From a bacterium (GTDB taxonomy: Bacteria > Bacteroidota > Ignavibacteria > UBA10030): a stretch of DNA of 53,613 nucleotides. The position numbers and the translations under genes were made by a program. The notes under the pieces were generated by a model, which was given only the letters and a program-made list of their open reading frames with translations, was not told the origin of the DNA and did not search any database. The stretch is from contig QYQB01000076.1 of the NCBI GenBank assembly GCA_007280275.1, positions 1 to 53,613 on the forward strand, written 5' to 3'. Positions 14,743 through 40,771 of the stretch are shown here, piece by piece (position 1 is the stretch's first letter; every line of letters starts with the position of its first letter).

Positions 14743-15843
14743 TTATATCTTGATCAAGATCTTGTTCTTATAGAGCCAGTAACACATATACCAAAGCAGA
14801 AACCATGCTGCGAAGGCCGTGGCATACGGCAGAAGTACTGGCGACCAGAAGAACAGGGCATAGGTAAACGGTTTCGCTATCTTAATCAGAAGAGAAGCGC
14901 CACCAAACTGATCGAACAGATAGATGAACAGGCAATTCATACCGACGATTGCAAAGAACTTCGGGACTTTTTGAATCTTCTTCAGATCCACCATCCAATA
15001 GGAGAATGCAAGAGCCACCAAACACCATCCACCGGTTTCGATGACATAGGAAGATGTGGCAATTCTCTTGACGATCGGTGTAATGGGATCGAGAGCGAAG
15101 CCGAGGGCGATGCCGATGAGCCCTGCGATGATGAGAATCTTCAACTTCTGGTTGGACGTCCTCTCGCTCCGCAGGATCAACCCCGCGACAACTCCCCAGA
15201 TCGTAAATGCCGCCGTGGGAACAGCGTTAAAGGCCACCCAATACCCCTTCTCAGTCATCCCCATCAGCTGTAGATCAACCCAGGTCCCAAAATTCTGTGC
15301 TGGCACAAATGCCTGGTTGAATCCTTCGACAGGCCAGAAACGATAGAGCAATTCGCTCAGCAGGAGGAATCCAAAGCTAACAGCCACCTGAACCTTAATC
15401 GGCTTTCTCATCAACAAAAACGCAACGATGTAGGTAAATCCCAGTTGAGTGAGGACATTCCAGAGTTTCCAGACCGGCCTGCCTGCGCTGATGCTGTAAT
15501 AAATGATGCCGAGCATGAAGAGCCAGGCCGAACGCTCAACGGCGTGCAAGAGTATCTTCTTCCAGGGATCTCCTCTTTCCAGCCGTTTCAATGCCGAAAA
15601 CGGGATCGCAACGCCGACAATGAACATGAAGAAGGGCTCGACGAAATCCCAGAAGGTCAACCCATTCCATGGATGGTGCTCAAACTGAAACCCGATGAAT
15701 GAGAGGATGCCGTTATCGGAAGCTTGCAGAAGGCGATACAGGCCTGACGACTTACCGATGAGAAGAAGCATTGTCAACCCTCGGAAGAAATCGAGCGAGA
15801 GGAGACGCTGCGCACTTGCTTGAGGCGAGATGTCCTGGGTCAT
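14743..15843 (-). CDS. HGSNAT-like (DUF5009/DUF1624) polytopic membrane acyltransferase, copy 2
   Basis: RLLSLDFFRGLTMLLLIG and FEHHPWNGLTFWDFVEPFFMFIVG, multi-TM. The ATG at 15843 follows AAGGGA plus 7 nt and sits 1 nt after the upstream TGA, so it was preferred over the ATG at 15861. Confidence 0.75.
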   Translation of the reverse strand: MTQDISPQASAQRLLSLDFFRGLTMLLLIGKSSGLYRLLQASDNGILSFIGFQFEHHPWNGLTFWDFVEPFFMFIVGVAIPFSALKRLERGDPWKKILLHAVERSAWLFMLGIIYYSISAGRPVWKLWNVLTQLGFTYIVAFLLMRKPIKVQVAVSFGFLLLSELLYRFWPVEGFNQAFVPAQNFGTWVDLQLMGMTEKGYWVAFNAVPTAAFTIWGVVAGLILRSERTSNQKLKILIIAGLIGIALGFALDPITPIVKRIATSSYVIETGGWCLVALAFSYWMVDLKKIQKVPKFFAIVGMNCLFIYLFDQFGGASLLIKIAKPFTYALFFWSPVLLPYATAFAAWFLLWYMCYWLYKNKILIKI

Positions 15844-15844
15844 T

Positions 15845-16861
15845 TCATTTTCCCTTTTCATTCAAATCGATAGTGATTTCCGCCTGTTCACTCCCCTGGT
15901 GTGTAACAAGTATGCGGTTCTCAGTGAACTGGAACAATCGCCAATTCAGAGACCCCTCGGCCACCGAACCCGTTTCAATCTGATAAACCGTCTGGCCGGC
16001 CGGGAATCTGATCCCTTCAAAAATGTTCGAATGCCCATGGCCGACAACCATTGCTTTGATGTTCGGATTCTCGTTCACGAGCTTTAACAGCCCATCCGAA
16101 CATTGCTTCGCGGTGGGCCAATCCAACAGACCGTGTTCCTTGAAGCAGATGCCATCTCCGTTGATGTCCCCAACCGAAAAATAGATATGAAAGAACAAGA
16201 TGACCGGCTCGCGCCCGGCGCTCGACAGTAGTTCCTTGAGCCAGTCAAACTGAACCTTGTCGATGACCCTTCCTTCGTCGTGCAGGCTGTAGCCGTTGTC
16301 AAGAAAGATGAAATGATAGTTGGTCCTGCCAACCCGAAAGATCCTGGAATAATAGGTGCCATCATGAAAACACGGGATGTTTCTTATCCAACTTGCACGC
16401 GCCCGGTCGGCAGAGGTCTGGGATTCAACGATCGTTGAGTCAGTATCATGAACGACATACTTCGTAAGGTCGTGATTGCCCAGCGTCAGATACAGTGGAA
16501 CCGGACACTGATCATTCACTGTTCTCAATTGTTCAATCTGATTCGCCAACAGCTTGTGGGATTTTGTTTCCCCCTCATACATGTCGAGCACATCTCCGGT
16601 GATTACAACAGCATCGGCTTTCACTTGTCTGGGAACCGATCTGAAAAACTCGGTCAGCGAATCGAGTCCGCTTCTGACAACGAAATGCCTGACCGGGAGC
16701 AACGGATGACATTCATCCTGGTTATACAGCAGATGGAGATCACTTGTATGAAGGACGTTCAGCGTGTCGACAGCTTGACCACGTGCTCCGTATGCAATCA
16801 GCACTGTGAACAGTGTCAAAGAGAACGCAATTTTGTAACGGCTCATCGAGATTCGTGACAT
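15845..16861 (-). CDS. Calcineurin-like metallophosphoesterase, exported
   Basis: Motifs LHTSDLHLL, VVITGDVLD, LGNHD and VVGHGH. Signal peptide present. Confidence 0.8.
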   Translation of the reverse strand: MSRISMSRYKIAFSLTLFTVLIAYGARGQAVDTLNVLHTSDLHLLYNQDECHPLLPVRHFVVRSGLDSLTEFFRSVPRQVKADAVVITGDVLDMYEGETKSHKLLANQIEQLRTVNDQCPVPLYLTLGNHDLTKYVVHDTDSTIVESQTSADRARASWIRNIPCFHDGTYYSRIFRVGRTNYHFIFLDNGYSLHDEGRVIDKVQFDWLKELLSSAGREPVILFFHIYFSVGDINGDGICFKEHGLLDWPTAKQCSDGLLKLVNENPNIKAMVVGHGHSNIFEGIRFPAGQTVYQIETGSVAEGSLNWRLFQFTENRILVTHQGSEQAEITIDLNEKGK

Positions 16862-16926
16862 ATGCGCTATTGGAAGACTTTACGCCTGGTTACTCTGGTA
16901 CGGAATGGATCCTGCAACGCAAAGAA

Positions 16927-17955
16927 TCATTTCCCCTGGTGTTGGGCCTCATCGATGAATGCGAGCATATTCTCCAACGGAATGTCCCCCTGCAGTTCAT
17001 GCGAAGGGGCCAGGATGTAGCCGCCCCCTTTACCCAAAACCCTGATCCGCTCCCTGATTTCTTTCCTGACATCATCCGGTGTGCCGTAAGGCAATGTTCT
17101 TTGTGTGCTCACTCCCCCCCAGAAGGTCAGGTCCCTGCCGTATTCTTTCTTGAGTTTTTCGAAATCGAAGGCTTCGGCCTGAAGCGGTGTTATCATATTG
17201 ACGCCGATCTCGATCAGATCCGGGATAATCTCTGAAATGTCGCCGCACGAATGAATTGAAACTGGCAGGCCTGCATCGTGGACGGCATCGTACAATTTCC
17301 GGAGTCGTTTCTTGAACATCGTTCGCCACAAGTCGGGGCTCATGATGAGACCATGCTGCTGCCCCCAGTCATCACCAAAGTGGAACGCGTCGATTGGGTA
17401 TTGACAGAGTCTCTTTGTGATCACCAGATTAAACTCAGTAATTCTTTCAAAAAGCTCTTCGATAAACGCCGGATTCTCTACAAAATCCATCAGAACTGGT
17501 TCAATACCCCTTAGAATCCACGCCCTTTCGTAAAGCGAAAACCCTATGGCACCCACGACAAACCTGTCTCTGTTCCCGTCGATGAACGCAGGAATCTCAC
17601 CCAGCTCCATGATTTTGTTTGCATCGGGAAAATCATACCCTTTCAATGTCGCTTCTTTCAGCGGGTAGTCGATGACGGTCCCAATATCTTCTCCTGGCTT
17701 CAGTTCCCACGTGGCTCCGAATGCATCCTTGAACTTGCCCGGACCCACGTCCTCCGTTTTGAAGATCGAATAGAAGCTTGGCTCAAACATGGCTATATGA
17801 TTGCCGATAACCTCACCCAGGTCCCTCTCACCGAAATGCCCTCTAAGCTTCTTCTCAGCTGCGGAGAGACAATCCATCTGGTAGGGAATGAAATCGGTTT
17901 CGTGATGAGCCATCGCGTCTTTTACTCTCTCCTTCTTCGTCATCTCGAATCCCAT
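16927..17955 (-). CDS. Uroporphyrinogen-decarboxylase (URO-D) family protein, copy 1
   Basis: 342 aa, no leader. Overall URO-D/MtaA-like TIM-barrel pattern: N-terminal KERVKDAMAHHETDFIPYQ, HFGDDWGQQHG, SIHSCGD. Family assignment is by recognition only. Confidence 0.6.
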   Translation of the reverse strand: MGFEMTKKERVKDAMAHHETDFIPYQMDCLSAAEKKLRGHFGERDLGEVIGNHIAMFEPSFYSIFKTEDVGPGKFKDAFGATWELKPGEDIGTVIDYPLKEATLKGYDFPDANKIMELGEIPAFIDGNRDRFVVGAIGFSLYERAWILRGIEPVLMDFVENPAFIEELFERITEFNLVITKRLCQYPIDAFHFGDDWGQQHGLIMSPDLWRTMFKKRLRKLYDAVHDAGLPVSIHSCGDISEIIPDLIEIGVNMITPLQAEAFDFEKLKKEYGRDLTFWGGVSTQRTLPYGTPDDVRKEIRERIRVLGKGGGYILAPSHELQGDIPLENMLAFIDEAQHQGK

Positions 17956-18013
17956 GGATTGTCCTGCTCACGTCCGAGAGAGCGGGTGATGAGAGTCCGG
18001 TTCTTCACGCTGT

Positions 18014-19318
18014 TCAATCCTTCTTGATGATTGTGAAATAGTCCCAAACGTGGCTTCCTTTTTCATTCAATTCATCGCAAAGAAATTTCACATCCATCCT
18101 GTCACCGTGAACATCGATGACGACGGATCCCTCATTATCAGATCCGGGGAAGTAAACGGGAAATATCTGATAATGCCTGAATGTCTTGATGGGATTCGAA
18201 GTCCCGCCTGCTGCCGTTGTGATGAATACGGTCCCCTGGTGCGGCATTCCCTTCTTCTTCACGTACGGACCACCAGTGTCTTCCCTGCCGATTCCAGCAT
18301 TTTTCTTGTTCGCTTCGGTCAACGTTGTTGTTGGTCCAATCAATTTGTCCAGCAAATAAGACCGTTCATACACGTGGTTATGTCCCTGCAGAACGAGGTC
18401 CACGCCATGGTCTTCCAGTATGGGCAGCCAATCTGTCCTTTGTGGCGGCGCATATTCGACCTCATCCGAGGGGTGATACCCCCCGCTATGAAATGGTTGA
18501 TGCATGCACGCGATCAGCCATTCTTGCTTGTTGTTGTCCAGGTCCTTCTTCAACCATTCCCGTTGGGCTTTTCTGCCGTTTTCATCATGTATCTCAGTGC
18601 ACAAACTTACCACGTGAATATTCGCGTAATCAAACGAGTAATACTCTGCGGCGACGGAGGCGATCCCCCCAGCTTCGGCTTTTGATGGGATCGTAAAAGT
18701 TCTCTTGTAGTTGTATATGCTGTCGTGTTCGTCATGATTGCCGACCGTTGTGTAGAGCGGTGACGACTTCAAAACGGGTTCGAGCTGATCGAAATAGTTG
18801 TGCTGCAACTGAAACAATGCATCATCTTCAGTCTGATCTCCCATGGAAAGAACAAAACTCGCATGGTAGCCGTTGTTGAAAGCCTTCCACTGAGCGACCG
18901 TCTCGAGCCGTCGCGCATTGTTTTTGGAATTGGTTTGGCCAAAATCTGAAATGGCCCAGATTCGGACTGGTGTTCCGGTGCCCACAGAGGGGGCGGTAAT
19001 GAAATATTGTTCTTCGTTTCCCTTCGACGAACCATCAACGGTGTAATAGTATTTCGTGTTTGGCACGAGTCCGGTCACCGGCACCTGGTGATAGATTCTC
19101 TCGTCTTCAGATTCCACAATTGTTTCGGACAGTGGGGAGAGTGAAGTGCCGTAACGGACTTTTCCGATGTCCCCTGTACCACTTTGCCACCGGATGATGA
19201 CGCTTGTCGGCGTGGGGACCTGAAGATAGGGTTGCCGGGTAACCTGGGCGAACGCCTGCACAGCGAACAAGAACAACAGCAGCAAAGATTGTTTCCTGAC
19301 AAACATGGATTTCTTCAT
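18014..19318 (-). CDS. Purple-acid-phosphatase-like metallophosphoesterase, exported, without T9SS tail
   Basis: FN3-like N-domain (VTRQPYLQVPTPTSVIIRWQS...NTKYYYTV). Phosphoesterase motifs SMGDQTEDD, TVGNHD, CMHQPFHSGG, QGHNHVYERS. Ends WDYFTIIKKD, exactly where the paralogs continue into a T9SS domain. The ATG at 19318 (MKKSMFVRKQSLLLLFLFAVQAFAQ) was preferred over the TTG at 19366. Confidence 0.8.
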   Translation of the reverse strand: MKKSMFVRKQSLLLLFLFAVQAFAQVTRQPYLQVPTPTSVIIRWQSGTGDIGKVRYGTSLSPLSETIVESEDERIYHQVPVTGLVPNTKYYYTVDGSSKGNEEQYFITAPSVGTGTPVRIWAISDFGQTNSKNNARRLETVAQWKAFNNGYHASFVLSMGDQTEDDALFQLQHNYFDQLEPVLKSSPLYTTVGNHDEHDSIYNYKRTFTIPSKAEAGGIASVAAEYYSFDYANIHVVSLCTEIHDENGRKAQREWLKKDLDNNKQEWLIACMHQPFHSGGYHPSDEVEYAPPQRTDWLPILEDHGVDLVLQGHNHVYERSYLLDKLIGPTTTLTEANKKNAGIGREDTGGPYVKKKGMPHQGTVFITTAAGGTSNPIKTFRHYQIFPVYFPGSDNEGSVVIDVHGDRMDVKFLCDELNEKGSHVWDYFTIIKKD

Positions 19319-19375
19319 TTCGTCTTCGATCCTCAGTAATTGTGATCGTTGTCTGCAGGTCTGCAAGACCTGATG

Positions 19376-20986
19376 TTAACGCACCAGCAGCATCTTCGTG
19401 CTCTTGATCATCGTTCCCGTTTGGATCTGCGCGATATACATGCCACTCGGTAAGTCGTTTCCATTTCCATCTTTCGCAATCCAACTCATCGTATGATGGC
19501 CTTTGTCCGTCACTCCGTCGAGCAGGGTCGCGGCACTGCGACCGAGTACATCATAGATCACGATCTTCGCAGATCCTCGTTGCGGCAGATCGTAAGAGAT
19601 GTTTGTTGACGGGTTGAATGGATTGGGATAATTGGCGATCGCAAATTCGTCAGGGACGTGAGTCATACTCCCACGAACTGCTGAGACAATCTGGGGCGCT
19701 GCGACGGTGAATGAATCGATCACAGTCCCCGGCGTACTGCAAACCTGTTCCTCTCGCGGCTTGTAGTCATTACCAGGATTGGTCGTGTTGGGAGAACAGA
19801 TGAATCGGCCCTGAATTGCGTCATCGGTGAAATCAAGAACCAGAATGCCGTAATGAATCGCACGAAAAGCACAGTTCGATGGCTTTGTCGGGCTATCCCA
19901 TCCACGAAAATATGACCCCGTCGTGCTATTGATAATATATGTCATTCCGCTTGATAGCGGATAACGCTCATACTGGTGGTTATGGCCGCTGAGATCAAGC
20001 ACATACTTCGGAAAAGCAGTATGGAAACCATCCAGGACGGTCCGCATACTTGTTTCACCGGGGCTGCGTCCACTTGCGCTTGTATAAGAAGACCTGTGAC
20101 CGAAAGTTACTATGAACCTGATATTGGGATCATTCTGGGCGGCTGAGAACACAGGTGTAACCTGGTTTTTCCACTCGATGCGGGTTGAAGAAGTCCATGG
20201 TTCAGGAAAGCTGATAAACCTTGTGTTACCGTAGTCAAACCAACCCCAGTCCTCACCTCCGGCGCTCACTGCCGGTGAAAATAGCATCGTCCCTGGATTT
20301 GGTATGTCAAAGCGCCCCTTAAAGGTTCGCAGATCATCTGCGGTGGTGTACTCCCAATCGTGGTTCCCCTCGACGGGCATCCAAGCAGCGCTCTGCGACC
20401 AGACCATCGCATCCTGAAAACGTCGTACGACTTTCTGCTGCCCATCGGGGCCCGCCCCTGTTAAGTCTCCGGTTGACAGCACCAAGGCAGGTTTGAACCC
20501 CGCGATCTGAGCGAACATAGCTATGCACTCCGGCGAGTTGTCATGCATATCGCTCGTAGTGCAGATCCTGAAGCCCGCCGTCCCGGGTGGAGGAGGCGTC
20601 CGGAACTTGTTCATCTGTCCGGTGCTGCCGATTCTGTAGTAATAGCTGGTGTTCTGCTGAAGCCCGGTAAGCTTTGCTTCCCAATAAGGACCGGGATCTG
20701 AAATCCACGGTGATGTCACCGGCAAGAAGGCCGGATGTGACGCCAGAACTGAAGTGCTGAGATTGCTGGAGTCAGCACCGTACCGAATCTGGTCGGCTGT
20801 TCCTATCCAATCAAATGTAATTGCCGTATTGCTGATAATGGAGTAGTGCACCTGATCGACCTCGGCCACTCTCGTCCTTGTTGCTCCGCTACTCTCCTGC
20901 TTCGCCACAGTTTGTGCTAACATCGGTTCATAGGAGGCCAGGAGGAAGGAAACTGAGAGAAGTATGATCGCAACGCTCTTCTTCAT
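19376..20986 (-). CDS. Purple-acid-phosphatase-like metallophosphoesterase with T9SS C-terminal sorting domain (divergent paralog)
   Basis: Motifs TTSDMHD, STGDLTG, EGNHDWEY, FGHRSSY, SGHNHQYERY. C-terminus NYPNPFNPSTNISYDLPQRGSAKIVIYDVLGR...MLLVR. Confidence 0.8.
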   Translation of the reverse strand: MKKSVAIILLSVSFLLASYEPMLAQTVAKQESSGATRTRVAEVDQVHYSIISNTAITFDWIGTADQIRYGADSSNLSTSVLASHPAFLPVTSPWISDPGPYWEAKLTGLQQNTSYYYRIGSTGQMNKFRTPPPPGTAGFRICTTSDMHDNSPECIAMFAQIAGFKPALVLSTGDLTGAGPDGQQKVVRRFQDAMVWSQSAAWMPVEGNHDWEYTTADDLRTFKGRFDIPNPGTMLFSPAVSAGGEDWGWFDYGNTRFISFPEPWTSSTRIEWKNQVTPVFSAAQNDPNIRFIVTFGHRSSYTSASGRSPGETSMRTVLDGFHTAFPKYVLDLSGHNHQYERYPLSSGMTYIINSTTGSYFRGWDSPTKPSNCAFRAIHYGILVLDFTDDAIQGRFICSPNTTNPGNDYKPREEQVCSTPGTVIDSFTVAAPQIVSAVRGSMTHVPDEFAIANYPNPFNPSTNISYDLPQRGSAKIVIYDVLGRSAATLLDGVTDKGHHTMSWIAKDGNGNDLPSGMYIAQIQTGTMIKSTKMLLVR

Positions 20987-21054
20987 TCAAGATTCTTGAT
21001 TAGAAATTCAACGATTGAATTCGAATTTAGCTAAGTCTGACTTCTTCTCAACTC

Positions 21055-22671
21055 TCACCGCAGGAGCATCATTTTTGTACTCTTCAAAAATTGTCCCGAC
21101 TGAATACGGGCGATGTACATGCCGCTTGTCACATCGTTCCCTCTTCCGTCTTTCCCGGACCAATCGATGGTGTGATTTCCTGTTGCGACTTCCCCGTCGA
21201 CCAACGTGGAAACGACTCGGCCTAGAACATCATAGATTGTTATCGTAACGTGCCCGGTTTGCGGAGCAGTATACGAAATCCGTGTTGATGGATTGAAAGG
21301 GTTGGGGTAGTTCGATATAGAGAAATCTTCCGGGAGCAAAGCCCGACTATCTTCAACGGAAGTCGCATTCGCCGACTTCAGTATCGTAAAATAGTCCCAA
21401 ATGTGGCTTCCCTTGGCGTCCAATTCGTCACAGAGAAACTTCACATCCATCCGGTTGCTACCGTCAACATCAACCACCAAGGATCCTTCATAGTCTGAGC
21501 CTCTGAAGACTACCGGAGTGAAGGCGAACGGATAGCGGAGATTACTGGCATCACTTGAAGTTCCGCCGCCTTCACAGTTGACGAAGATTTCTCCGCCGTG
21601 CGGCCGACCTGCCACCTTTTTATATGCGTGATCAACATCTATCCTGCCGAGTGCCGTATCGATTTTGTTCGCCTCAGTCAGGCTTGTCGATTTTCCCGTG
21701 AGGTTGTCGAGCATATAGGATCTCTCGTAGACGTGGTTGTGGCCCGCCAGAATGAGATCGACCCCTGCGTCTTCCAGCACGGGCAGCCAATTCGCTCTCT
21801 CCGTCATGGAAAATGGGTCCGTATCTGACTTGTGGTCGCCTGCGCTGTGCATTGGGTGGTGCATGAGAGCAATCAACCAATCAGATTTGTTGGCCGACAA
21901 GTCATTCTTCAGCCATTCTGTTTCAGGACTTATATCGAAACCGTCCGCGCAGAGCACCACAACATGGATATTGGCATAGTTGAAGGAATAGTAATCCTCG
22001 GTGCCCGAAGCCAGCCCCCCGGCCTCAGCGTTGGCCGGCAGTGTAAACGAGGCTTTGTAGACAACGCGTTGATCACCAGCATCATGATTGCCTACGGTGG
22101 TAAAAAGAGGAGTTATCCTGAGAACATCCTGAAGCTGGTTGAAGTAGTTTGCCTGAAGCTGACTCTCCCAGTCTGATTCTGATTGATCACCTAACGAGAG
22201 AACGAGATCGGCAGCGAGCGAATTGTTATTGAACTCCTTCCAGACATTAACAGTGACAGTCCTGCGGGCATCGTCCGAGGTGGAAAACGATTGACCAAAA
22301 TCCGAAATCACCCAAAGTCTTGTGAATTGACGTGTACCTGTAACGGGTGCCGTTACGAAATATTGATCCGATGTGCCACCAGAAGGACCCGTCACCGAGT
22401 AGTAGTATTTCTGCTTTGGGGACAGTCCGGTAATTGTTATCTCATGTTTTATTGCGTTGCCGGTGTCAGACTTTGCTTTTGTCAGCGACGTCGTTGAAGC
22501 CCCATAATAGACCGTCCCAACCCTTGCGCTGTCCGAATCCCACCGCACGACGATGCTGTTTGGCGTGACAATTTGAAGATACGGCTGGCGCGTAACTTGC
22601 GCAGACATCTGGACTGACAGCAAAAACAGAATCAGCAACAGTCCGTTTCTGTGAAGAAGGCGATGGTTCAT
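21055..22671 (-). CDS. Purple-acid-phosphatase-like metallophosphoesterase with T9SS C-terminal sorting domain
   Basis: Close paralog of 18014 and 22725 (VTRQPYLQIVTPNSIVVRWDS, SLGDQSESD, TVGNHD, AGHNHVYERS), plus NYPNPFNPSTRISYTAPQ...MMLLR. GAGGGA lies 5 nt before the ATG. Confidence 0.85.
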   Translation of the reverse strand: MNHRLLHRNGLLLILFLLSVQMSAQVTRQPYLQIVTPNSIVVRWDSDSARVGTVYYGASTTSLTKAKSDTGNAIKHEITITGLSPKQKYYYSVTGPSGGTSDQYFVTAPVTGTRQFTRLWVISDFGQSFSTSDDARRTVTVNVWKEFNNNSLAADLVLSLGDQSESDWESQLQANYFNQLQDVLRITPLFTTVGNHDAGDQRVVYKASFTLPANAEAGGLASGTEDYYSFNYANIHVVVLCADGFDISPETEWLKNDLSANKSDWLIALMHHPMHSAGDHKSDTDPFSMTERANWLPVLEDAGVDLILAGHNHVYERSYMLDNLTGKSTSLTEANKIDTALGRIDVDHAYKKVAGRPHGGEIFVNCEGGGTSSDASNLRYPFAFTPVVFRGSDYEGSLVVDVDGSNRMDVKFLCDELDAKGSHIWDYFTILKSANATSVEDSRALLPEDFSISNYPNPFNPSTRISYTAPQTGHVTITIYDVLGRVVSTLVDGEVATGNHTIDWSGKDGRGNDVTSGMYIARIQSGQFLKSTKMMLLR

Positions 22672-22724
22672 AGCATCCCTCGATTTCCGCCGGAAGGTCC
22701 TCGTTCATGAGGCCACCGACGATT

Positions 22725-24350
22725 TTACCTTAGCAACAGCATTTTTGTGTTCTTTATGAACTCACCAGCGCGGAGTCGCGCGATGTACATTCCGCTCACA
22801 AGATTGTTACCTCTCTCATCTTTTCCAGACCAATCAACAGTATGAGTCCCTTTCTCCTGCTCTCCGTCGACCAGAGTCGCCACAGTGCGACCAAGCAGAT
22901 CATAGATCGAGATTCTCACTGAACCCCGTTGCGGGAGAGTATAGGATATCTTTGTCGACGGGTTGAATGGGTTGGGATAATTTGTAATCGAGAAATCACT
23001 CGGAAGGAGGGTCCTGTCACCGACAACAGATGATACCTTCGGTGCCTTGATGATTGTCAAGCTGTCCCAGACGTGGCTGAGAGTGATAAGATGTGGTTGA
23101 TCACAGATGAATTTGACATCCATGCGGTTGCTACCGCTGACATCGATGACCAACGAGCCTTCGTTGTTGGATTGCTTGAAAACTATTGGAGTGAAGCTCA
23201 AGGGAACTGTCAGGTATTTGGGATCGTTTGCTGTTCCGCCCCCCTGGCATGAAATGAAGATTTCCCCCTGATGCGGTCGGCCCGGTTCTTTCTGATAGGC
23301 ATGGTCTATCCCGATCCTGCCGAGCGCGGTGTCTATCTTATTGGCAGATGTGATGCTTGCGGAATTACCTGTGAGGTTATCAAGAAGGTACGATCTTTCG
23401 TATACATGGTTATGACCAGAAAGGATGAGATCGACCCCTGCTCCTTCCAGCAACGGGAGCCAATTTGCCTTTTGCGCGAGCGCAGTTGCATCGCCATCCG
23501 TTGGATGATAGCCGGCGCTGTGCATTGGCCGGTGCATGTAGGCAATCAGCCAATCGGACTTATTGTTTGCCAGATCGTTCTGAAGCCATGTCTTCTGAGC
23601 CCCCGAAATGCTCACATTGTTTTCAACCGTGAGGGCGACGAAGTGAATGTTTGCGAAGTTGAAGGAGTAGTAGTCCTCCGTTCCCGATGGGGATCCGCCC
23701 GCTTCAGCGCGCGTCGGCAGGGTAAAATCGGCCTTATAGTTGACTTCACCGTCGGTGTCTTCATGGTTCCCTGCAATCGTAAACAGGGGCGTGCATTTGA
23801 GAACATCTTGAAGCTGGTTGAAGTAGTTGGCCTGGAGTTGTGCTTCCGTGTCTTCTTCCGACTGATCGCCAAGAGAAAGCAGCACGTCAGCATGCACATC
23901 GTTGTTGTTGAATGCCTTCCAAAAACCAACAGTCTGAAGCCTTCGAGTGTCATCCGATGTGCTGTTTGATTGACCAAAATCAGACACCACCCAGATTCTG
24001 GTCGACTGAGCGCTCCCTGTAGGCGGCGCAGTGACAAAATATTGATCAAAAGCGCCTCCGGTCGTGCCGGCTACGGAGTAGTAGTATTTCTGTTTTGGAG
24101 ATAATCCCACAATCGTTATCTCATGTTTCGTTCTGGCGCTGCTTTCTGATTGAGTGCTTGTCAGCGATGTCACTGACGCACCGTAATGAACGGTACCGAC
24201 TTCCGAAGTCTGCGTGTCCCAGCGTATGGTGATACTGTTCGGCGTTACTATTTGCTGGTAAGGCTGGCGCGTAATCTGCGCCAGAGCCATCGAGGTAATC
24301 AGACACAGGAATAACAAGATCTGCTTTCGATGAAGGACATTTCGGATCAC
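22725..24350 (-). CDS. Purple-acid-phosphatase-like metallophosphoesterase with T9SS C-terminal sorting domain
   Basis: ITRQPYQQIVTPNSITIRWDT, SLGDQSEED, IAGNHED, SGHNHVYERS, plus NYPNPFNPSTKISYTLPQ...MLLLR. GTG start after AGAGGAGAG. Confidence 0.85.
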   Translation of the reverse strand: MIRNVLHRKQILLFLCLITSMALAQITRQPYQQIVTPNSITIRWDTQTSEVGTVHYGASVTSLTSTQSESSARTKHEITIVGLSPKQKYYYSVAGTTGGAFDQYFVTAPPTGSAQSTRIWVVSDFGQSNSTSDDTRRLQTVGFWKAFNNNDVHADVLLSLGDQSEEDTEAQLQANYFNQLQDVLKCTPLFTIAGNHEDTDGEVNYKADFTLPTRAEAGGSPSGTEDYYSFNFANIHFVALTVENNVSISGAQKTWLQNDLANNKSDWLIAYMHRPMHSAGYHPTDGDATALAQKANWLPLLEGAGVDLILSGHNHVYERSYLLDNLTGNSASITSANKIDTALGRIGIDHAYQKEPGRPHQGEIFISCQGGGTANDPKYLTVPLSFTPIVFKQSNNEGSLVIDVSGSNRMDVKFICDQPHLITLSHVWDSLTIIKAPKVSSVVGDRTLLPSDFSITNYPNPFNPSTKISYTLPQRGSVRISIYDLLGRTVATLVDGEQEKGTHTVDWSGKDERGNNLVSGMYIARLRAGEFIKNTKMLLLR

Positions 24351-24402: not shown

Positions 24403-26529
24403 TCAGTTCACTTGAGTCAGATCCACCGGTAAGGTCCTCACTCTTTTTCCAGTGGCTGAGTAAATTGCATTGCAGAGCGCAGGTGCAGTAACGCCTATCC
24501 CCAATTCTCCAATTCCACCAACCGGAAGGGTATTCTGCACGATATGCACTTCTACCTTTGGCATCTCTTCGTACGTGAGAATCGGATAACTGTCAAAATT
24601 GCCTTCACTTACTCCGCCGTTCCGAACTGTAATCCGTTGCTTCAGAGCCGCTGACAAAGCAAACGCAATGCAACTCTGCATCTGCGCTTCGACTGTATCC
24701 GGATTCACTACCAGGCCGCAATCGATCGCGCAGACGTACCGATCCACTTTCAGATTGTCTTTCCGATCAAGAGTGATCTCAGCAACAAATGCACAATAAC
24801 TGTCATACGCCGATGCGCACGCGATCCCTCTCCCATGCCCCTTACTCAATGCGGCGTACCAGTCTGACTTCTGAGCGGCGATCGTAAGCACGTTCAGCAG
24901 TCTCGATTTTTCCGGGAGCATATCTCTTCTGAATTCAAACGCATCCTTCCGGGCTGCCAGGGCCATTTCATCGACGAATGATTCAAGAGCAAACGGGTTC
25001 TGCGAACGATAGACAGACCGCCAGTACCCGAGGGGAACGGGAGTGGTTACGATGCTGCCGGTCAATTCCATGAACGGAATCTGATACTCCCTCTCGATTG
25101 CCCCCCCTTTGAAGTCATAATGAGCCGGATCCAACTTCGTTTGCGATTTGAACTCTTCAATGGAAGGGGTGATGACATGATGCCGGAGGGATGCCGGCTT
25201 CCCGTGTTCATTGAGCGTCCCTTTCAGCTGATGAATGCTCGGAGGACGATAGAAGTCGTGCCTGGTATCTTCCTCCCTTGTCCACGTGAGCTTGATGGGT
25301 TTGCCGGCGTGTTTGGATAATTCGGCTGCCTCGACTGCGTAGTCAACATCGCCTCTGCGGCCAAAGCCGCCGCCACTGAATGTCACATACACCGTAACAT
25401 CTTCCTCTTTCAACCTCAGCGCCCTGGCCACGGCTGTCTGAGCAGCTTGAGGATTCTGTGTCGGGGCCCAGAGTTCGACTTTGCCATCCTTGAAATGCGC
25501 AAGACAATTCATCGGCTCCATCGCTGCGTGGGCAAGGAAAGGCGTCTCGTACACTGCCTCGATCACCGTCTCGTTTTTCTGCGGCATCGCGGAAGTCCCG
25601 ATCCGTGTGAGCATTTCCCCGGGTTCCCTGAGCTTTGCGGACATCGAGTTGCGGATGCTCTCGGAACTCACGTTCGCGTTCGGGCCCGGCTCCCAATTCA
25701 CTGAGAGAAGCCCTTTCCCCATGAACGCGAGCCACGTCGATTCTGCGATGACAGCTACTCCTGTGCTGATGGCGGTTGCATCGAGCACTCCATTCAGCGC
25801 CTTCGTTCTTGTGGCATCAAAGCTCTTTATTCCGCCACCGAACGTCGGGATATGGCTTATCGTGGCAAAGCGCATTCCGGGCAACGTGTGATCTATGCCG
25901 AAAAGAGCTTCGCCGTACAGCTTGCCGGGTGTGTCGAGTCGATGGATTTTCTTCCCGATGATCTTGTAGTCTTTCGGGTCTTTCAGTTTCACACTCGTTG
26001 GAACGGGCAGTTTTGATGCATCTTCAACCAGTTCGCCGTAAGGAAGTTTCGTGCCGGAGATCTTGTTAACAACGACCCCCATTTCTGCTGAGCAGTCGGA
26101 TGGTGTTATTTTCCAACGCGCAGCAGCGGCCGTTATGAGCATCGTTTTTGCGGTCGCTCCCACAACCCGAAGTGGTTCCCAGGATCTACGAATACTTGTG
26201 CTTCCACCAGTATTCTGGTCGCCGAACCTTTTGTCCGAAAACGCGTTTTCGACTTTTATCTTCTCCCAATCCACTTCGAGTTCTTCTGCGACCAGCATTG
26301 TCAGTGATGTGAATACGCCCTGACCCAGTTCCGATCTCGGCACGATAACCGTCACCAATCCGCTCGACTCAATTCTGATGAAGACATTGGGTGCAAAAAC
26401 CTTCGGCGTATCACCTTTCTTTTGGATGAATCCTCTAAGCGGAACGTACGATGCCAGAATGAGCCCTGATCCGCCAACACTGAATATTCTGATAAACTCT
26501 CGTCTCGTATGTTTTATTCGTTCGGCCAT
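24403..26529 (-). CDS. Molybdopterin-dependent hydroxylase large subunit (IorB / aldehyde-oxidase family) with Tat signal
   Basis: Twin-arginine leader MAERIKHTRREFIRIFSVGGSGLILAS. GGSTSIR and FSGGGFGRR motifs of the xanthine-dehydrogenase/aldehyde-oxidase Mo-binding family. 708 aa. Confidence 0.8.
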   Translation of the reverse strand: MAERIKHTRREFIRIFSVGGSGLILASYVPLRGFIQKKGDTPKVFAPNVFIRIESSGLVTVIVPRSELGQGVFTSLTMLVAEELEVDWEKIKVENAFSDKRFGDQNTGGSTSIRRSWEPLRVVGATAKTMLITAAAARWKITPSDCSAEMGVVVNKISGTKLPYGELVEDASKLPVPTSVKLKDPKDYKIIGKKIHRLDTPGKLYGEALFGIDHTLPGMRFATISHIPTFGGGIKSFDATRTKALNGVLDATAISTGVAVIAESTWLAFMGKGLLSVNWEPGPNANVSSESIRNSMSAKLREPGEMLTRIGTSAMPQKNETVIEAVYETPFLAHAAMEPMNCLAHFKDGKVELWAPTQNPQAAQTAVARALRLKEEDVTVYVTFSGGGFGRRGDVDYAVEAAELSKHAGKPIKLTWTREEDTRHDFYRPPSIHQLKGTLNEHGKPASLRHHVITPSIEEFKSQTKLDPAHYDFKGGAIEREYQIPFMELTGSIVTTPVPLGYWRSVYRSQNPFALESFVDEMALAARKDAFEFRRDMLPEKSRLLNVLTIAAQKSDWYAALSKGHGRGIACASAYDSYCAFVAEITLDRKDNLKVDRYVCAIDCGLVVNPDTVEAQMQSCIAFALSAALKQRITVRNGGVSEGNFDSYPILTYEEMPKVEVHIVQNTLPVGGIGELGIGVTAPALCNAIYSATGKRVRTLPVDLTQVN

Positions 26530-26533
26530 GGAA

Positions 26534-26992
26534 TCAGCCCTCCCGAACGATTGTTTCGATGGCTTCCCTGATCCTCTGGTACGTTCCGCATCTGCACAAC
26601 ACTCCGTTCATCGTCTCTGCTATTTGTTGTGGCGATGGCTTTGCGTTCTGATTCAGCATCGCCGCGAGGGTCATGATTTGACCGGGCTGACAGTATCCGC
26701 ATTGCGACACTTCCCGTTCAATCCATATTTTGAAAATGGGGTTGTTTTTGTTTGCTGCCAGACCTTCGATGGTCGTGATGGATTTGCCGGCAGCTTTCTC
26801 AATTGGCACGGAACAGGATTTCTCTGCTTTTCTATCGATGTGGACAGTGCATGCTCCGCACAACCCTTCACCGCATCCAAACTTCGTTCCCGTCAAACCA
26901 AGCGTGTCCCGCAGCACCCAAAGCAACGGCGTGTCCCCGTCGACCTCGACCGTTCTCTGTGTTCCGTTCACCTCGATTGCGTATCGTGCCAT
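26534..26992 (-). CDS. [2Fe-2S]-binding small subunit of the molybdo-hydroxylase (IorA-like)
   Basis: CGEGLCGACTV and QCGYCQPGQIM cluster motifs. The ATG at 26992 (MARYAIEVNG...) was chosen because the longer track ORF would overlap the upstream gene. Its stop lies 4 nt before the large-subunit ATG. Confidence 0.8.
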   Translation of the reverse strand: MARYAIEVNGTQRTVEVDGDTPLLWVLRDTLGLTGTKFGCGEGLCGACTVHIDRKAEKSCSVPIEKAAGKSITTIEGLAANKNNPIFKIWIEREVSQCGYCQPGQIMTLAAMLNQNAKPSPQQIAETMNGVLCRCGTYQRIREAIETIVREG

Positions 26993-27044
26993 AGGATTCC
27001 CTGCTGAATATTTCCCACTCGACGATTGATCTAAAGCCAGACGG

Positions 27045-28382
27045 TTACTTGCGGACGACATCGCCGTCCGCGTGTCCTGCCATCGTGTTGTCAAGAACCC
27101 GGATGTTCAAGGCCCCTTTGCTGATCAGAACCCCGCATTTCTGAGCTCTGGTTCCGGTGTCGCGGATCGTGTTGTGTTGAACGGTGATGTCCCTGATACC
27201 CGAACTAATGAAAAAGCCGTATCCGGGATTCTTCCTCCCATTATTCTCGACGACGTTCCCCGTGAAGACATTCCGATGGCTGTTGTTCGCCTCGCCATAG
27301 TTGTTGAACCAAATGCCGTTGCGTCCGTTTTCATACACGTGGTTCTGCACAAAGGTGTTGTCCGTGTCCTTCTTGTTGACCGATATTCCATCGCGCTTGT
27401 TGCTGAACACTTTGTTATTTCTGAATGTACTCTGCTTGACTCGCCAGCAGAGAAATATGCCATCAAGATTGTCATGCGAGCTGCATCCTTCAACCAGCGT
27501 GTTTTCGCACCCGGTCCCCGGATGAAAGCCCTTCCCGGTGGAATGCGAAGCCTCACAATTTCGGACAGTTATGTTCCTGGTCGTTTGCCAGCTGAAGACA
27601 TCTCCGTTGAAATTCCTGGCCTTCACATTTTCCACCACACAGCCCGATGCGCGTTGAAGATAGATTGCGCCGCCGCGGCAACCGCCAAGCACATCGTTCG
27701 TTTCTTTGTTTCCATCCACCACGAGATTGGCGACACAAACATTCTCCGCACCTGTTACTTCGATGATGGAGCACGCGTTTGTCAATACGGCCTTGTGCCC
27801 GCAATCGTAATCCCGCAGCGTGGGTTGATCGAGAAAGAGCGTGTTGCCTTCGATTGCAACAATCGTTGCAACTGTCACATCGTAGTCGGACGGATACTGA
27901 GAATCCGACAGCTGCACGCCCATGCCGGGACGAAAGCCCTTCGCGTCGCGAACGGTGACCTTCACCATGCCGTAATCGCCGTCAACTTCCAGCAAGCTTC
28001 GATAACCATCGACCTTGTGCAAGACGGTCGAGTCCCCGGCTCCGACAAGCGTGATATTGCTCGACAGTTTTATTGGAGCTGAAATCTGATACGTTCCTGC
28101 CTTCAATTGCACTGTGCCGCCGCCATTCTTTGCTGCGTCGTCAACCGCAACCTGAATGGCAGCCGAGGTGAATGCCTGGATCTGCGTTGAAATTCCTCCG
28201 ACCGCGATGGTTTGCTTCACAGACCTCGGAGAGATCAGCAGATCGCCGTCAACCAGGTCATTGCGGACCGTGATCATCGTATCGGACGCAGCCGAGGTCT
28301 TGGGGGTCGGTTGCGCATACGCGACAACAACCGGGATTAACAGTCCCAACACCACCTCAATAACAGTCCCTTTTTGCATCAT
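27045..28382 (-). CDS. Right-handed parallel beta-helix (pectate-lyase-fold) protein, exported
   Basis: AAKNGGGTVQLKAGTYQISAPIKLSSNITLVGAG start (pectate_lyase_3-like), then many N-x-V/I-x-N coil repeats. AGGGAG lies 4 nt before the ATG. Confidence 0.7.
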   Translation of the reverse strand: MMQKGTVIEVVLGLLIPVVVAYAQPTPKTSAASDTMITVRNDLVDGDLLISPRSVKQTIAVGGISTQIQAFTSAAIQVAVDDAAKNGGGTVQLKAGTYQISAPIKLSSNITLVGAGDSTVLHKVDGYRSLLEVDGDYGMVKVTVRDAKGFRPGMGVQLSDSQYPSDYDVTVATIVAIEGNTLFLDQPTLRDYDCGHKAVLTNACSIIEVTGAENVCVANLVVDGNKETNDVLGGCRGGAIYLQRASGCVVENVKARNFNGDVFSWQTTRNITVRNCEASHSTGKGFHPGTGCENTLVEGCSSHDNLDGIFLCWRVKQSTFRNNKVFSNKRDGISVNKKDTDNTFVQNHVYENGRNGIWFNNYGEANNSHRNVFTGNVVENNGRKNPGYGFFISSGIRDITVQHNTIRDTGTRAQKCGVLISKGALNIRVLDNTMAGHADGDVVRK

Positions 28383-36233: not shown

Positions 36234-37271
36234 TTAGTAAGTAGCCAGGCGCTTCACTGTTTTCACCATCGCTGAGATGTTCTCCTCGGGAGTATCCCTT
36301 GGAACCATTTCGCCGGAACTGAAAATGAATCCTCCCCCCTCCTTGCAGATACCCATAATTCGCTCAACCTCACTCTCAACAACCTCGGGAGTTCCTTTCC
36401 AAAGGACCTTGATCGGATCGATATTGCCGCTAATCGGTACCCGCCCTTTGGATGCTTCGCGAATCTCCCTGATGTCAGCGTCGGGCCCTATGTTCTCGAA
36501 ACTGTAGCCCAGAGGAAAATGGGATCTGACGTGATCCGCATGAATCTCACTATTGTGGAGCCACATCATGATGTCAATGTTGTTCTCGCAATATTCTATC
36601 AGATCTCTTGTCACAGGGAGAATGTGTTCGTTGTACAAATCCACGGAAACCATGGAACTGAAAGCATTGCAGTCGCCAAGCCAGATCGCGTCTGCGCCGG
36701 CGTCCTTCTGTGCCTTGATATATCGCACATAGAAATCCTTCCAGCACTCCATGGCTTCACGCAACAGGTCTTTATCGGTAAGCAGGAGGAGCATTGATTC
36801 TTCGATACTCCACATCAAACCAATCGCACTGAACGGAGCAGCACATGATCCTGTCACCAACACTGTATCTCCGAAGTATGCTTTCAGTTTCTCAAGTGCT
36901 TTCAGTTTTTCAGGCATGCGTCCGCCCCTGCAAGGATCCATGGCGCGTACACGCTCCAGGCTTTCCCTCCCAACCGGCAAGTACTGATAGGTCCCCCGCA
37001 GGATGTTCCCTTCGCCTTTAACACCGACACCGATCGGTTCAAATTCAAAGCAGTCATCAATTTGTACCCAGGCCCAGTCATAATCAAAATGCTCAACTGC
37101 GGCTCTGATGACTTCAAAGATCTTATCCCCATCCTGACAGAACTCCTCGTACGTGTATTTGCCGTACCACTTGACATCAAATTCCTCACTCGCGGCGGTA
37201 CAGGGAACCCTCGATGGCATCTTTCTTCTTCTGATTGCCTGGAAATCGTTGACTGCTCCTCTGTATCCCAT
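36234..37271 (-). CDS. Uroporphyrinogen-decarboxylase (URO-D) family protein, copy 2
   Basis: 345 aa, no leader. The RRRKMPSRVPC N-terminal segment, LVTGSCAAPFS and IWLGDCNAFSSMV resemble the URO-D/MtaA-like family. Only distantly related to copy 1. Confidence 0.55.
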   Translation of the reverse strand: MGYRGAVNDFQAIRRRKMPSRVPCTAASEEFDVKWYGKYTYEEFCQDGDKIFEVIRAAVEHFDYDWAWVQIDDCFEFEPIGVGVKGEGNILRGTYQYLPVGRESLERVRAMDPCRGGRMPEKLKALEKLKAYFGDTVLVTGSCAAPFSAIGLMWSIEESMLLLLTDKDLLREAMECWKDFYVRYIKAQKDAGADAIWLGDCNAFSSMVSVDLYNEHILPVTRDLIEYCENNIDIMMWLHNSEIHADHVRSHFPLGYSFENIGPDADIREIREASKGRVPISGNIDPIKVLWKGTPEVVESEVERIMGICKEGGGFIFSSGEMVPRDTPEENISAMVKTVKRLATY

Positions 37272-39514: not shown

Positions 39515-40771
39515 TTATCGTTTGATATCCTTCTGCAATTCGAAAGAATCGTACAGAGTGCCGGTCACGGTGTAGGACTTGTAGATGAGCTTACCTTCCT
39601 GGAACGAGATCACCTGGAAGAGCTGATGCTCTTTCCCGGTCTTCTGCATCAGATAATCATATTTCGGATTGTGGTCATATCCCCTCGGGCCGCATACGGA
39701 TACGACGTAGACGGTTCCTTGTTCCTGGTCGCCGACGACCTTTCCGTTTTTCAGACTCTTGCTTCTCGCGTAGCCATGATCGTGGCCGGTGAGGACGAGG
39801 TCGACGGAATACTTGTCGAACAAGGCCATGAAGGCATTCCGTGTGTTATGTTCATCCCGACCTTTTGCTATCGAGAAAACCGGTTCATGCATTGCGGCAA
39901 CCGTCCATTTGTTCGGATTGGCAGCAAGCACCTTGTCAAGCCACTCCGTTTGTTCCTTCAAGCCCATTTGGGCATCGAGCACGACAAATCGAACGCCCTG
40001 ATAATCGAGATAGTAGACCCTTCCTTCCAGTCCCTTTGGCCCGTTCTGGGGAAAAGTAAAATGCGCCTTCCAGGTTGGGGAGAACATATCCCAACGCACC
40101 ACGCCCTTTGTTTTCAATGCATACTCATGACTACCGGGCGCCACGATGCTCGGAATAATCGAATGAATGAATCCAGTAGCATAGAACCATTCCACCCAAT
40201 TTCTGTCATACTGCGGAAGATCGAACAGATCTCCGGTGAACAGCCAGAACTTTGCCGTGGGAGCCGTCAGGAGAGCTTCCCTGAACACCCGGGAGATCAT
40301 GTCTTTCACTTCGTACTGAGGATCGCCGAGGAAAACAAAACTAAAAGGTGCATCACCTTCTTTTGCAGTGGTAAACTGATTCCATTCACTCCACGCTGAA
40401 TCCCCTCCGACCCGGTATGCATACAGTGTGTTGGCCTTCAAGCCGCTCATGATCGACGAGTGCGAGTACACTATTGCGCGCGTATCCAGCTCGAATTTCT
40501 CGGACGTGGCGCTCCCGTTCACCGCACCCTTTTGAAAGCCGTCCCAGTCACCTGCTGGCGCAACCTGAACAACCGGATTCTTCACTTCCCCCTCCGTTCG
40601 CCATGTTACCGCCATGCTGCTCGAAGGGGTAGTCGTAAGATTGAGCACGATCCGCTGCGGAATGAGTGTCTGTCGTTGAGGTTGTCCGTTCGAGACACTC
40701 AGGCAGAACATCAGTCCGATGATGAACCCGGAAAGTAATCTCTTCAATCTTCTCTCCCGTGTGCTTTTCAA
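39515..40771 (-). CDS. Purple-acid-phosphatase-like metallophosphoesterase, exported
   Basis: SSMAVTWRTEG...TLYAYRVGG N-domain, then FVFLGDPQ, FTGDLFD, APGSHEY, AMHEPVF, LTGHDHGYARS. The TTG at 40771 is preceded by AAGGAG plus 5 nt and lies 19 nt after the upstream TAG. The longer track ORF (to 40888) would overlap the upstream gene. Confidence 0.8.
   Translation of the reverse strand: MKSTRERRLKRLLSGFIIGLMFCLSVSNGQPQRQTLIPQRIVLNLTTTPSSSMAVTWRTEGEVKNPVVQVAPAGDWDGFQKGAVNGSATSEKFELDTRAIVYSHSSIMSGLKANTLYAYRVGGDSAWSEWNQFTTAKEGDAPFSFVFLGDPQYEVKDMISRVFREALLTAPTAKFWLFTGDLFDLPQYDRNWVEWFYATGFIHSIIPSIVAPGSHEYALKTKGVVRWDMFSPTWKAHFTFPQNGPKGLEGRVYYLDYQGVRFVVLDAQMGLKEQTEWLDKVLAANPNKWTVAAMHEPVFSIAKGRDEHNTRNAFMALFDKYSVDLVLTGHDHGYARSKSLKNGKVVGDQEQGTVYVVSVCGPRGYDHNPKYDYLMQKTGKEHQLFQVISFQEGKLIYKSYTVTGTLYDSFELQKDIKR

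Follow-up and report, generated by a model that had tools for sequence, protein, structure and literature searches.

Six exported metallophosphoesterases within a conserved, putative glycan-degradation locus of an Ignavibacteria genome

Why should a bacterial locus that is rich in glycosidases also carry a whole set of exported phosphoesterases? This question is raised by a contig of 53,613 nucleotides (QYQB01000076.1, positions 1 to 53,613, assembly GCA_007280275.1) of a member of the Ignavibacteria (Bacteroidota, UBA10030). The stretch analyzed, called the window in the following, is one complete contig of a 3.7-Mb metagenome-assembled genome (MAG) of 84% completeness, and every credible gene in it is encoded on the minus strand. 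Six of these genes encode metallophosphoesterases (MPEs). We consider it rather probable that they are exported binuclear MPEs with an accessory role in the digestion of a phosphate-bearing N-acetylhexosamine/hexosamine/uronate glycoconjugate by a conserved locus of patchy distribution.

The gene content of the window was read with Pfam and NCBIfam profiles. PF00149 (cut-off 21.5 bits) was found in all six proteins with 49.2-62.0 bits, in agreement with an initial annotation that had proposed six MPE genes from the DNA sequence. MPE1 (15845..16861; this and all following window coordinates refer to the minus strand), an exported stand-alone MPE of 338 aa, scored 59.9 bits and displays the motifs DxH, GDxxD, GNHD, H, and GHxH. 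The other five, here named PAP2 to PAP6, also carry the FN3-like N-domain of purple acid phosphatases (PAPs; PF16656, Pur_ac_phosph_N, cut-off 30 bits, 31.5-73 bits in these proteins), which is absent from MPE1 and had been ascribed beforehand to most of the six. PAP2 (18014..19318; 434 aa, the same length as in public gene calls; 62.0 bits) consists of a signal peptide, the PAP N-domain, and the MPE domain, with the motifs SDFGQ, GDQTE, GNHD, MHQP, and GHNH. This arrangement is followed by a type-A T9SS (type IX secretion system) sorting tail in PAP3 (19376..20986; 536 aa; 49.2 bits; SDMH, GDLTG, GNHD, GHRS, GHNH) and, after a beta-rich region, in PAP4 (21055..22671; 538 aa; 58.0 bits; SDFGQ, GDQSE, GNHD, MHHP, GHNH) and PAP5 (22725..24350; 541 aa from a GTG start; 58.5 bits; SDFGQ, GDQSE, GNHE, MHRP, GHNH). 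PAP6 (39515..40771; 418 aa; PF00149 53.9 bits, PF16656 73 bits; GDPQ, GDLFD, GSHE, MHEP, GHDH) is, like PAP2, built without a tail. Of the motifs GDxxxD, GNH(D/E), and GH(N/D)H, earlier attributed to all six, GNH(D/E) does not hold for PAP6, which has GSHE.

PAP2 to PAP5 are four phosphoesterase genes in a row (18014-24350), as had been described, and one URO-D-like gene parts MPE1 from them. PAP6 lies 15 kb away from this array, flanked by a DeoC-type aldolase and a PIG-L deacetylase. The 3' end of MPE1 overlaps by 17 nt the start of its downstream partner, a NagX/HGSNAT-like transmembrane acetyltransferase gene (14743..15861; NCBIfam NF046061 NagX, 131.5 bits, below the 480-bit cut-off). With a total of about 14 MPE genes in the genome (13 profile matches and PAP3, which that search missed), six are found on 1.45% of the assembly (Poisson P for six or more ~8e-8). 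The NCBIfam matches of the six enzymes (SbcD, SpdA, LpxH) all remained far below the cut-offs, and homologues bear generic names in the source databases ('acid phosphatase type 7', 'CpdA', 'metallophosphoesterase').

The six genes are not copies of one another. PAP4 and PAP5 share 65% identity and PAP2 is 51-53% identical to both, while PAP3, PAP6, and MPE1 are each at most 30% identical to any other family (26-27% between PAP3 and PAP4/5 in the catalytic core). Since these four families, no more than 30% identical, each have their own orthologues elsewhere, the genes do not constitute the single tandem array suggested by the initial annotation, but an assembly of different phosphoesterases, within which the PAP4/PAP5 pair is the one recent duplication. 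The wider PAP6 family was present in 36 of 401 Bacteroidota genomes. The PAP2 type was found in three of the 401 genomes searched and was absent from one other searched genome of the same genus. Two fusion proteins (P0052, 930 aa; P0082, 939 aa) consist of a PAP2/4-type module, a PAP3-type module, and a single T9SS tail, which suggests that the two families work together. No fusion to a carbohydrate-binding or glycosidase domain was seen among the long homologues; PAP-PAP fusions, one weak dockerin match, and a PKD domain were all that these contained.

All six proteins start with an N-terminal signal peptide, and every time a Gln follows the likely cleavage site, which is typical of exported Bacteroidota proteins. 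For PAP5 the signal peptide requires the GTG start at 24350, which is preceded by GGAG 8 nt ahead, and it parallels that of PAP4; in public calls, the identical gene begins 20 codons further downstream, at an ATG, and encodes 521 aa without a signal peptide. The C-termini of PAP3, PAP4, and PAP5 all contain NYPNPFNPST, and their sorting domains (19376..19633, 21055-21312, and 22725-22982, respectively) scored above the cut-offs of PF18962 (Por_Secre_tail; 29.0, 34.5, and 30.0 bits; cut-off 27) and TIGR04183 (31.1, 42.3, and 37.8 bits; cut-off 23). The host encodes the PorU sortase, the component searched for, on contig C257 (823 bits; cut-off 420) and about 85 tailed open reading frames, which makes T9SS routing credible and supports the surface export that had been expected for three of the enzymes. 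PAP3, PAP4, and PAP5 are accordingly predicted at the cell surface. PAP2, having a signal peptide but no sorting tail, is probably periplasmic, and the same probably applies to PAP6 and MPE1. Over their last 85 residues, the three tailed phosphoesterases show 64-71% mutual identity and share a KDG.GN insertion, and they are 35-49% identical to the four other tails of the window; this suggests that they were swapped between neighboring genes or represent a distinct subtype with its own destination.

The surroundings of the six genes are dominated by glycan-related functions. Glycosidases of the families GH20 (three genes), GH27, GH123, GH28, and GH88 are found together with a beta-helix protein, four PIG-L/LmbE deacetylases, and a CBM9 protein. 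Also present are two URO-D/MtaA-like proteins, a two-subunit molybdenum hydroxylase, two GFO/IDH/MocA oxidoreductases, DegT, PfkB, and a DeoC-type aldolase, as well as four T9SS-tailed proteins of unknown family besides the tailed phosphoesterases. SusC, SusD, or a TonB-dependent receptor was not detected in the window by the Pfam and NCBIfam scans, and the adjacent SusC/SusD pair that marks a polysaccharide utilization locus (PUL) is hence lacking. The host, without SusCD at this locus, appears to depend on T9SS secretion.

Neighborhoods were compared by tblastn of the window proteins against loci with homologues. In another Bacteroidota MAG (locus L001), the order PAP5-PAP4-PAP3-PAP2 is the same at 75-80% identity, flanked by molybdenum hydroxylase and URO-D genes. 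PAP2 orthologues of 52-67% identity occur in loci L002-L008 (Bacteroidales, Chitinophagaceae, and Ignavibacteriaceae) in the vicinity of GH28, GH27, GH20, PIG-L, NHL, unk600, unk369, unk669, DegT, GH123, NagX, and MPE1 genes. All eight close loci with a PAP2/4-type gene (L001-L008) thus also hold orthologues of other window genes, and a further PAP2 orthologue lies in a glycan locus of genome G365; identities of PAP2 orthologues over L001-L008 and G365 are also put at 62-80%. Loci L009-L013 (Acidobacteria and others) encode Tyr-type PAPs without such glycan-gene neighbors. The PAP2 type is rare, yet 62-67% identical in MAGs assigned by label to Chitinophagaceae, Bacteroidales, and Ignavibacteriaceae, which fits a horizontal spread of the locus.

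The other families show comparable associations. The adjacency of MPE1 and NagX is retained in L007, and in genomes of Ignavibacteriaceae and KSB1, orthologues of MPE1 adjoin NagX-like, GH123, and GH20 genes; the KSB1 locus reads GH123-unk669-unk369-GH123-beta-helix-MPE1 (44% identity)-GH20-TonB receptor. PAP3 orthologues were found in L001, L008, L031, and L060, one of them in a neighborhood with an AraC-type regulator, URO-D, PIG-L, a rhamnogalacturonan I (RGI)-lyase-like gene, NHL, unk600, GH20, and two GH123 genes. A Chitinophagaceae locus (G401) comprises SusC (516 bits), SusD (283 bits), a 608-aa MPE, two GDNAY-type PAPs, GH20, GH28, and the PAP2 orthologue, followed by two PIG-L genes, NHL, GH20, unk600, unk369, and GH27, and represents a canonical SusCD locus with four phosphoesterases. 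In a 6.5-Mb genome (L059; ERZ21878447 ctg45527l 1923835-1940779), an MPE1 relative of 35% identity is accompanied by GH123, GH28, two GH92 alpha-mannosidase-family genes, an alginate-lyase-like gene, a GDPD-family phosphodiesterase, and a metallo-beta-lactamase-fold protein; the GDPD gene adds a further kind of phosphodiesterase to a related locus. The conserved gene order across lineages supports, on comparative grounds, a tie between the phosphoesterases and glycan degradation. The initial annotation had favored such a tie over scattered housekeeping, and the occurrence of PAP2, PAP3, and MPE1 orthologues beside the same glycan genes in other Bacteroidota classes and in KSB1 agrees with it.

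The serious rival among the alternatives, which we nevertheless hold to be unlikely, is that the genes form a phosphate-starvation set of the Pho/Pus type that mineralizes organophosphates, in which the glycosidases expose the phosphate-bearing part and phosphorus is the prize. Flavobacterium johnsoniae has PUL-like Pus loci that respond to phosphate depletion and encode a PF00149 phosphodiesterase, polygalacturonase-like lipoproteins, and T9SS proteins (PMC8115612), and about 576 SusCD loci with PF00149 or PF01663 genes but without carbohydrate-active enzymes (CAZymes) have been reported (PMC6499787). Moreover, the PAP2 orthologue often adjoins a GH28-like gene in other genomes. In our locus, however, bona fide CAZymes and genes of cytoplasmic sugar catabolism prevail (three GH20, GH27, GH123, GH88, GH28, PfkB, the DeoC-type aldolase, DegT, and GFO). 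No pst, phoU, phoBR, ECF (extracytoplasmic function) sigma, anti-sigma, or any other regulator gene was detected in the window by the profile scans, in line with the earlier view that the genes are unlike ordinary Pho-regulon housekeeping. Likewise, no phosphate transporter or Pho regulator was found in the orthologous loci examined, the sole regulator beside one of them being of the AraC type. The genome also holds an NPP/PafA-like phosphodiesterase gene (PF01663, 136 bits) that adjoins another Metallophos gene outside the window (C217:4661-6603), and this pair is a candidate for the general phosphate-scavenging pair of the genome. By analogy with the Pus loci of F. johnsoniae, phosphate-starvation control may apply here too (PMC8115612), and glycan digestion and phosphorus scavenging can be compatible, provided that carbon, nitrogen, and phosphorus are all drawn from the substrate.

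What the enzymes might hydrolyze was approached through their nearest characterized relatives. The closest PDB sequences of PAP4 are plant PAPs (2.7e-15), and its AlphaFold2 (AF2) model (predicted local distance difference test, pLDDT, 82) best matches the folds of wheat purple acid phytase (8e-26) and of bean and sweet-potato PAPs. Lupin PPD1 follows within the same plant group (1e-21 to 8e-26), and Bacillus subtilis PhoD matches at 6.5e-17. As single sequences, MPE1 and PAP3 had no PDB match and family profiles were required, with which PAP3 matched plant PAPs at 1.5e-14 and MPE1 matched GpdQ (1.9e-9) and SMPDL3B (1e-8). The AF2 model of MPE1 (pLDDT 91) matches the folds of ADPRibase-Mn, Lmo2642, GpdQ, SMPDL3A/B, and Rv0805. 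Since the nearest solved relatives of MPE1 are phosphodiesterases, a diesterase role appears likeliest for this protein; judged by the modeled folds, the PAP-type proteins may act on monoesters or on diesters.

Some of these relatives act on nucleotides, which brings in a second alternative, namely that the enzymes are surface nucleases, nucleotidases, or pyrophosphatases that degrade extracellular DNA or RNA in the matrix alongside the glycan. Nucleases and nucleotide phosphodiesterases do occur in the MPE superfamily, MPE1 weakly matches SbcD, cyclic-nucleotide phosphodiesterases, and ADPRibase-Mn, and PPD1 is a plant diphosphonucleotide phosphatase. According to a proposal of Lapebie et al., SusCD loci that contain PF00149 genes target nucleic acids (PMC6499787). 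We regard this explanation as very improbable, given that the nuclease-type profile matches all lie far below the family cut-offs, that the profile scans of the window detected no genes for the salvage or transport of nucleosides or nucleotides, and that a tight cross-phylum co-conservation with hexosaminidases and deacetylases would be unexpected for general nucleases.

The active sites bear on whether the enzymes hydrolyze esters at all. MPE1 shows all five MPE motifs, and D41, H43, D90, N129, H130, H225, H275, and H277 do not vary among 30 homologues, the most distant of them at 31% identity. PAP2-5 have substitutions at the first metal site, and PAP6 retains the motifs in part. Within the PAP2/4/5 clade (SDFGQ, GDQ(S/T)E, GNH(D/E), MH.P, GHNH), D124, D162, N195, H196, H271, and H311 (PAP4 numbering) are invariant, and H280, located nine residues past the metal-binding His like the phosphate-binding His of bean PAP, is ~90% conserved. 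D146, D174, H209, H297, H335, and H337 are invariant in PAP3. Outgroups of the PAP2/4/5 clade (Acidobacterial and others, ~40% identity) display GD.GT, GDNAY, and GHSH; because they keep GDNAY where the clade has GDQ(S/T)E, the Fe(III)-binding Tyr corresponds to Glu in the latter. The PAP3 clade has SDMH, in which the motif-I His is regained, and GDLTG, compared with GDIG and GDLTY in its outgroup (~40% identity). The position of the PAP tyrosine is thus occupied by Glu in PAP2/4/5, by Gly in PAP3, and by Asp in PAP6, and the seven PAP ligands (D, D, Y, N, H, H, H) are complete in none of them. With the Tyr ligand missing in all five, none strictly qualifies as a purple acid phosphatase, and the earlier label 'purple-acid-phosphatase-like' was overstated. 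Alternative ligands may be supplied by the replacing Glu (PAP2/4/5) and, in PAP3, by the His of motif I. A coincidence of the Tyr loss with recruitment into the glycan locus was considered and rejected, as the Chitinophagaceae locus also has its two GDNAY-type PAPs directly after SusD.

PAP6 deviates most. Its wider family shows GDAQN, GDL(I/V)N, and GNHE, while PAP6 and its one close orthologue (G365) have GDPQ, GDL(F/M)D, and GSHE, the last seen only in these two and aligning to GNHE of kidney-bean PAP (Asn to Ser). Degenerate metal ligands, named in the initial annotation as an argument against its own proposal, were hence found in part: they are intact in MPE1 and mostly conserved in PAP2-5, and the Asn of PAP6 and the Tyr of all five are lost. 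The conservation of the remaining ligands and of the phosphate-binding His leads us to expect hydrolytic activity, least certainly for PAP6. In a sub-clade of PAP2-type homologues (P0043, P0046, P0047, P0049, P0050, P0091), GHNH is replaced by GHNA, a variant absent from the window that has lost the second motif-V His, a ligand of the first metal; its members may bind one metal or have a changed activity. That the Tyr-less PAP-type proteins, PAP6 especially, cleave another ester such as sulfate or only bind their ligand is highly improbable: the tyrosine replaced in five of five, the lost Asn of PAP6, the GHNA sub-clade, and a locus without any sulfatase in a genome with five elsewhere would fit, but the other ligands and the phosphate-binding His of PAP2-5 are invariant or nearly so, alternative ligands are supplied (Glu; motif-I His), and we know of no MPE-fold sulfatase acting on glycans.

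Returning to the digestion of a phosphate-bearing glycoconjugate, we infer the following scheme of phosphate-ester hydrolysis, compartments, and order of action from the domain content, active-site residues, export signals, and cross-lineage gene order described above. PAP3, PAP4, and PAP5 would cross the outer membrane via the T9SS and attack, on or close to the cell surface, the phosphate esters of the polymer, be these bridging phosphodiesters or decorations of the phosphomonoester or phospho-alcohol kind; the four further T9SS proteins of unknown family share the same kind of export signal. PAP2, PAP6, and MPE1 would complete this work on imported fragments in the periplasm, with MPE1 most probably acting as a phosphodiesterase beside a NagX-like re-acetylation step, while the deacetylases and NagX-like acetyltransferases would edit amino sugars in the same compartment. 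Dephosphorylation might then allow the exo-glycosidases GH20, GH123, GH27, GH28, and GH88 to go on, with phosphate freed as a by-product. Phosphate may be present in several chemical contexts, to judge from how many and how diverse the phosphoesterases are and from their recurrence in other lineages, where a locus has three to six.

Two leading candidates for the substrate are put forward by analogy. The first are glycosylated teichoic-type or glycosyl-1-phosphate wall polymers, for which PhoD/GlpQ and the GDPD gene in L059 may serve as precedents. The second are inositol-phosphoglycan headgroups of lipids of the glycosyl inositol phosphorylceramide (GIPC) or glycosylphosphatidylinositol (GPI) type, with a Botrytis enzyme and Flavobacterium pus1 as possible precedents. 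Phosphorylated capsules or exopolysaccharides are a further candidate.

Several points weigh against our interpretation. Sequence alone gives neither the substrate nor the chemistry, and with PAP6 lacking its Asn and five PAP-type proteins lacking Tyr, the metal content and even the activity are assumptions. No paper characterizing any of the four families was found in our literature search. Pus loci are superficially similar, so that a conserved order with a GH28-like gene is, taken alone, also compatible with a role in phosphorus acquisition.

A bolder extension, which we consider doubtful but worth stating, is that the Tyr-less PAP clades and the MPE1 family are new glycan-specific phosphoesterases that open a widespread, unrecognized class of phosphodiester-bridged amino-sugar glycoconjugates to exo-glycosidases, for instance wall polymers of the glycosylated teichoic or glycosyl-phosphate type. 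If so, these families would play for phosphate the role that sulfatases play for sulfate. The more speculative inositol-phosphoglycan variant would, if true, give a role to the PIG-L expansion, the HGSNAT-like acetyltransferases, and the IolG/IolC-like genes. In the usual reading of glycan loci, attention goes to glycosidases, lyases, and sulfatases, and phosphoesterases are seldom counted. Four MPE families with the same core across Bacteroidota lineages and KSB1 would imply a common phosphate-bearing glycoconjugate in the environment with no described catabolic route. Its identification would connect the turnover of carbon with that of phosphorus, be it in bacterial wall polymers or in membrane glycolipids, and CAZy-style annotation would gain enzyme families. 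How the PAP tyrosine came to be replaced independently in these clades is in addition a tractable question of metalloenzyme evolution.

Further features of the window concern expression and the neighboring genes. Promoter and terminator counts between 14.5 and 28.5 kb did not exceed those of shuffled controls and no such element lies inside any spacer, so that co-transcription is plausible. The element ATCAAGAATCTT (20987-21010), immediately 5' of the PAP3 ATG, is kept in the 75%-identical locus L001, where the remaining spacer has diverged, and may be a translation-initiation or regulatory element; a palindrome noted in the initial annotation is retained in L001 only in part. The molybdenum hydroxylase (24403-27094), located between the phosphoesterase array and the beta-helix protein, consists of a 708-aa molybdenum cofactor (MoCo)-binding subunit and a 2Fe-2S subunit of the IorAB/aldehyde-oxidase type and is 83% identical in L001. 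The two URO-D/MtaA-CmuA-like proteins (16927-17955 and 36234-37271) scored below the NCBIfam cut-offs, share 68-85% identity with counterparts in L001, L006, and L060, and might demethylate methylated sugars. Neither a PDB sequence match nor a Pfam match was obtained for unk669, unk600, and a 536-aa T9SS protein. No lipid-handling genes were found in the window. An inositol route was also considered and receives no support, as GFO1 scored 139 bits against IolG (cut-off 355) and 307 against levoglucosan dehydrogenase (cut-off 650), and PfkB scored 79 bits against IolC (cut-off 300), all below the cut-offs.

How does the locus compare with known systems? The plant-type PAPs and phytases (kidney-bean 1kbp and 4dhl; wheat PAPhy 6git and 6gj2), the best sequence matches (2.7e-15 to 5e-12) and fold matches (E down to 8e-26), share with PAP2-6 the FN3-like N-domain, the MPE domain, and motifs III, IV, and V. 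They differ in that the Tyr that binds Fe(III) and confers the purple color is replaced in all five, PAP6 in addition having Ser for Asn, and in that our proteins are only 16-21% identical to them, bacterial, partly T9SS-exported, and placed inside a glycan locus. GpdQ and SMPDL3A/B, the best profile and fold matches of MPE1, are secreted binuclear phosphodiesterases, but E-values reach only 1e-8 to 1e-11 at 14-16% identity, and MPE1 lacks the sphingomyelinase-like extra domains.

PhoD and GlpQ share the breakdown of teichoic acid in an endo/exo division of labor. PhoD of B. subtilis (2yeq) resembles PAP4 in its PAP-like fold with an N-terminal beta-sandwich, and the pairing of a PAP-fold enzyme with the GDPD-family enzyme GlpQ is paralleled in L059, where the MPE1 relative lies near a GDPD gene. 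In contrast to our locus, PhoD and GlpQ are Pho-regulated and not associated with glycosidases, and the catalytic PhoD family PF09423 had no match in the genome (PhoD_N 19 bits; cut-off 30), the likeness being confined to the fold. GlpQ has been described as a teichoic-acid phosphodiesterase in a study that also mentions PhoD (PMC7086022). On the side of the glycolipids, a secreted Botrytis GIPC phospholipase C of the sphingomyelinase group frees phosphorylated oligosaccharides (inositol phosphoglycans) from GIPC (PMC11496612), and a calcineurin-like protein in Flavobacterium pus1 has been proposed to do likewise.

Pus loci resemble the window in gene content, being found in Bacteroidota and encoding exported phosphoesterases, including PF00149/calcineurin-like ones, T9SS proteins, and polygalacturonase-like proteins. 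They possess PusCD transporters and ECF/anti-sigma pairs, have hardly any CAZymes or none, and respond to phosphate starvation by induction (PMC8115612; bioRxiv 10.64898/2026.09.03.749221), whereas the window has more than 10 CAZymes and sugar-catabolic genes and neither a SusCD/PusCD pair nor a regulator.

The locus is of a known kind insofar as accessory de-esterifying enzymes in glycan-utilization loci and phosphoesterase-bearing Sus-like loci are familiar. Not described in the literature searched are four uncharacterized MPE families, three of them Tyr-less PAP derivatives, combined with T9SS export and a co-conserved core of hexosaminidase, deacetylase, and acetyltransferase. The yeast-mannan locus of Bacteroides thetaiotaomicron, which reportedly contains a phosphatase, can be likened to it by the same de-esterifying logic. 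Compared with the accessory de-esterifying enzymes of PULs such as sulfatases, the window differs in the MPE fold, in the four to six phosphoesterases per locus, and in a host that appears to use the T9SS instead of SusCD. It would resemble them in that esters are removed before exo-glycosidases can proceed, and the orthologous Chitinophagaceae locus is itself a canonical SusCD locus.

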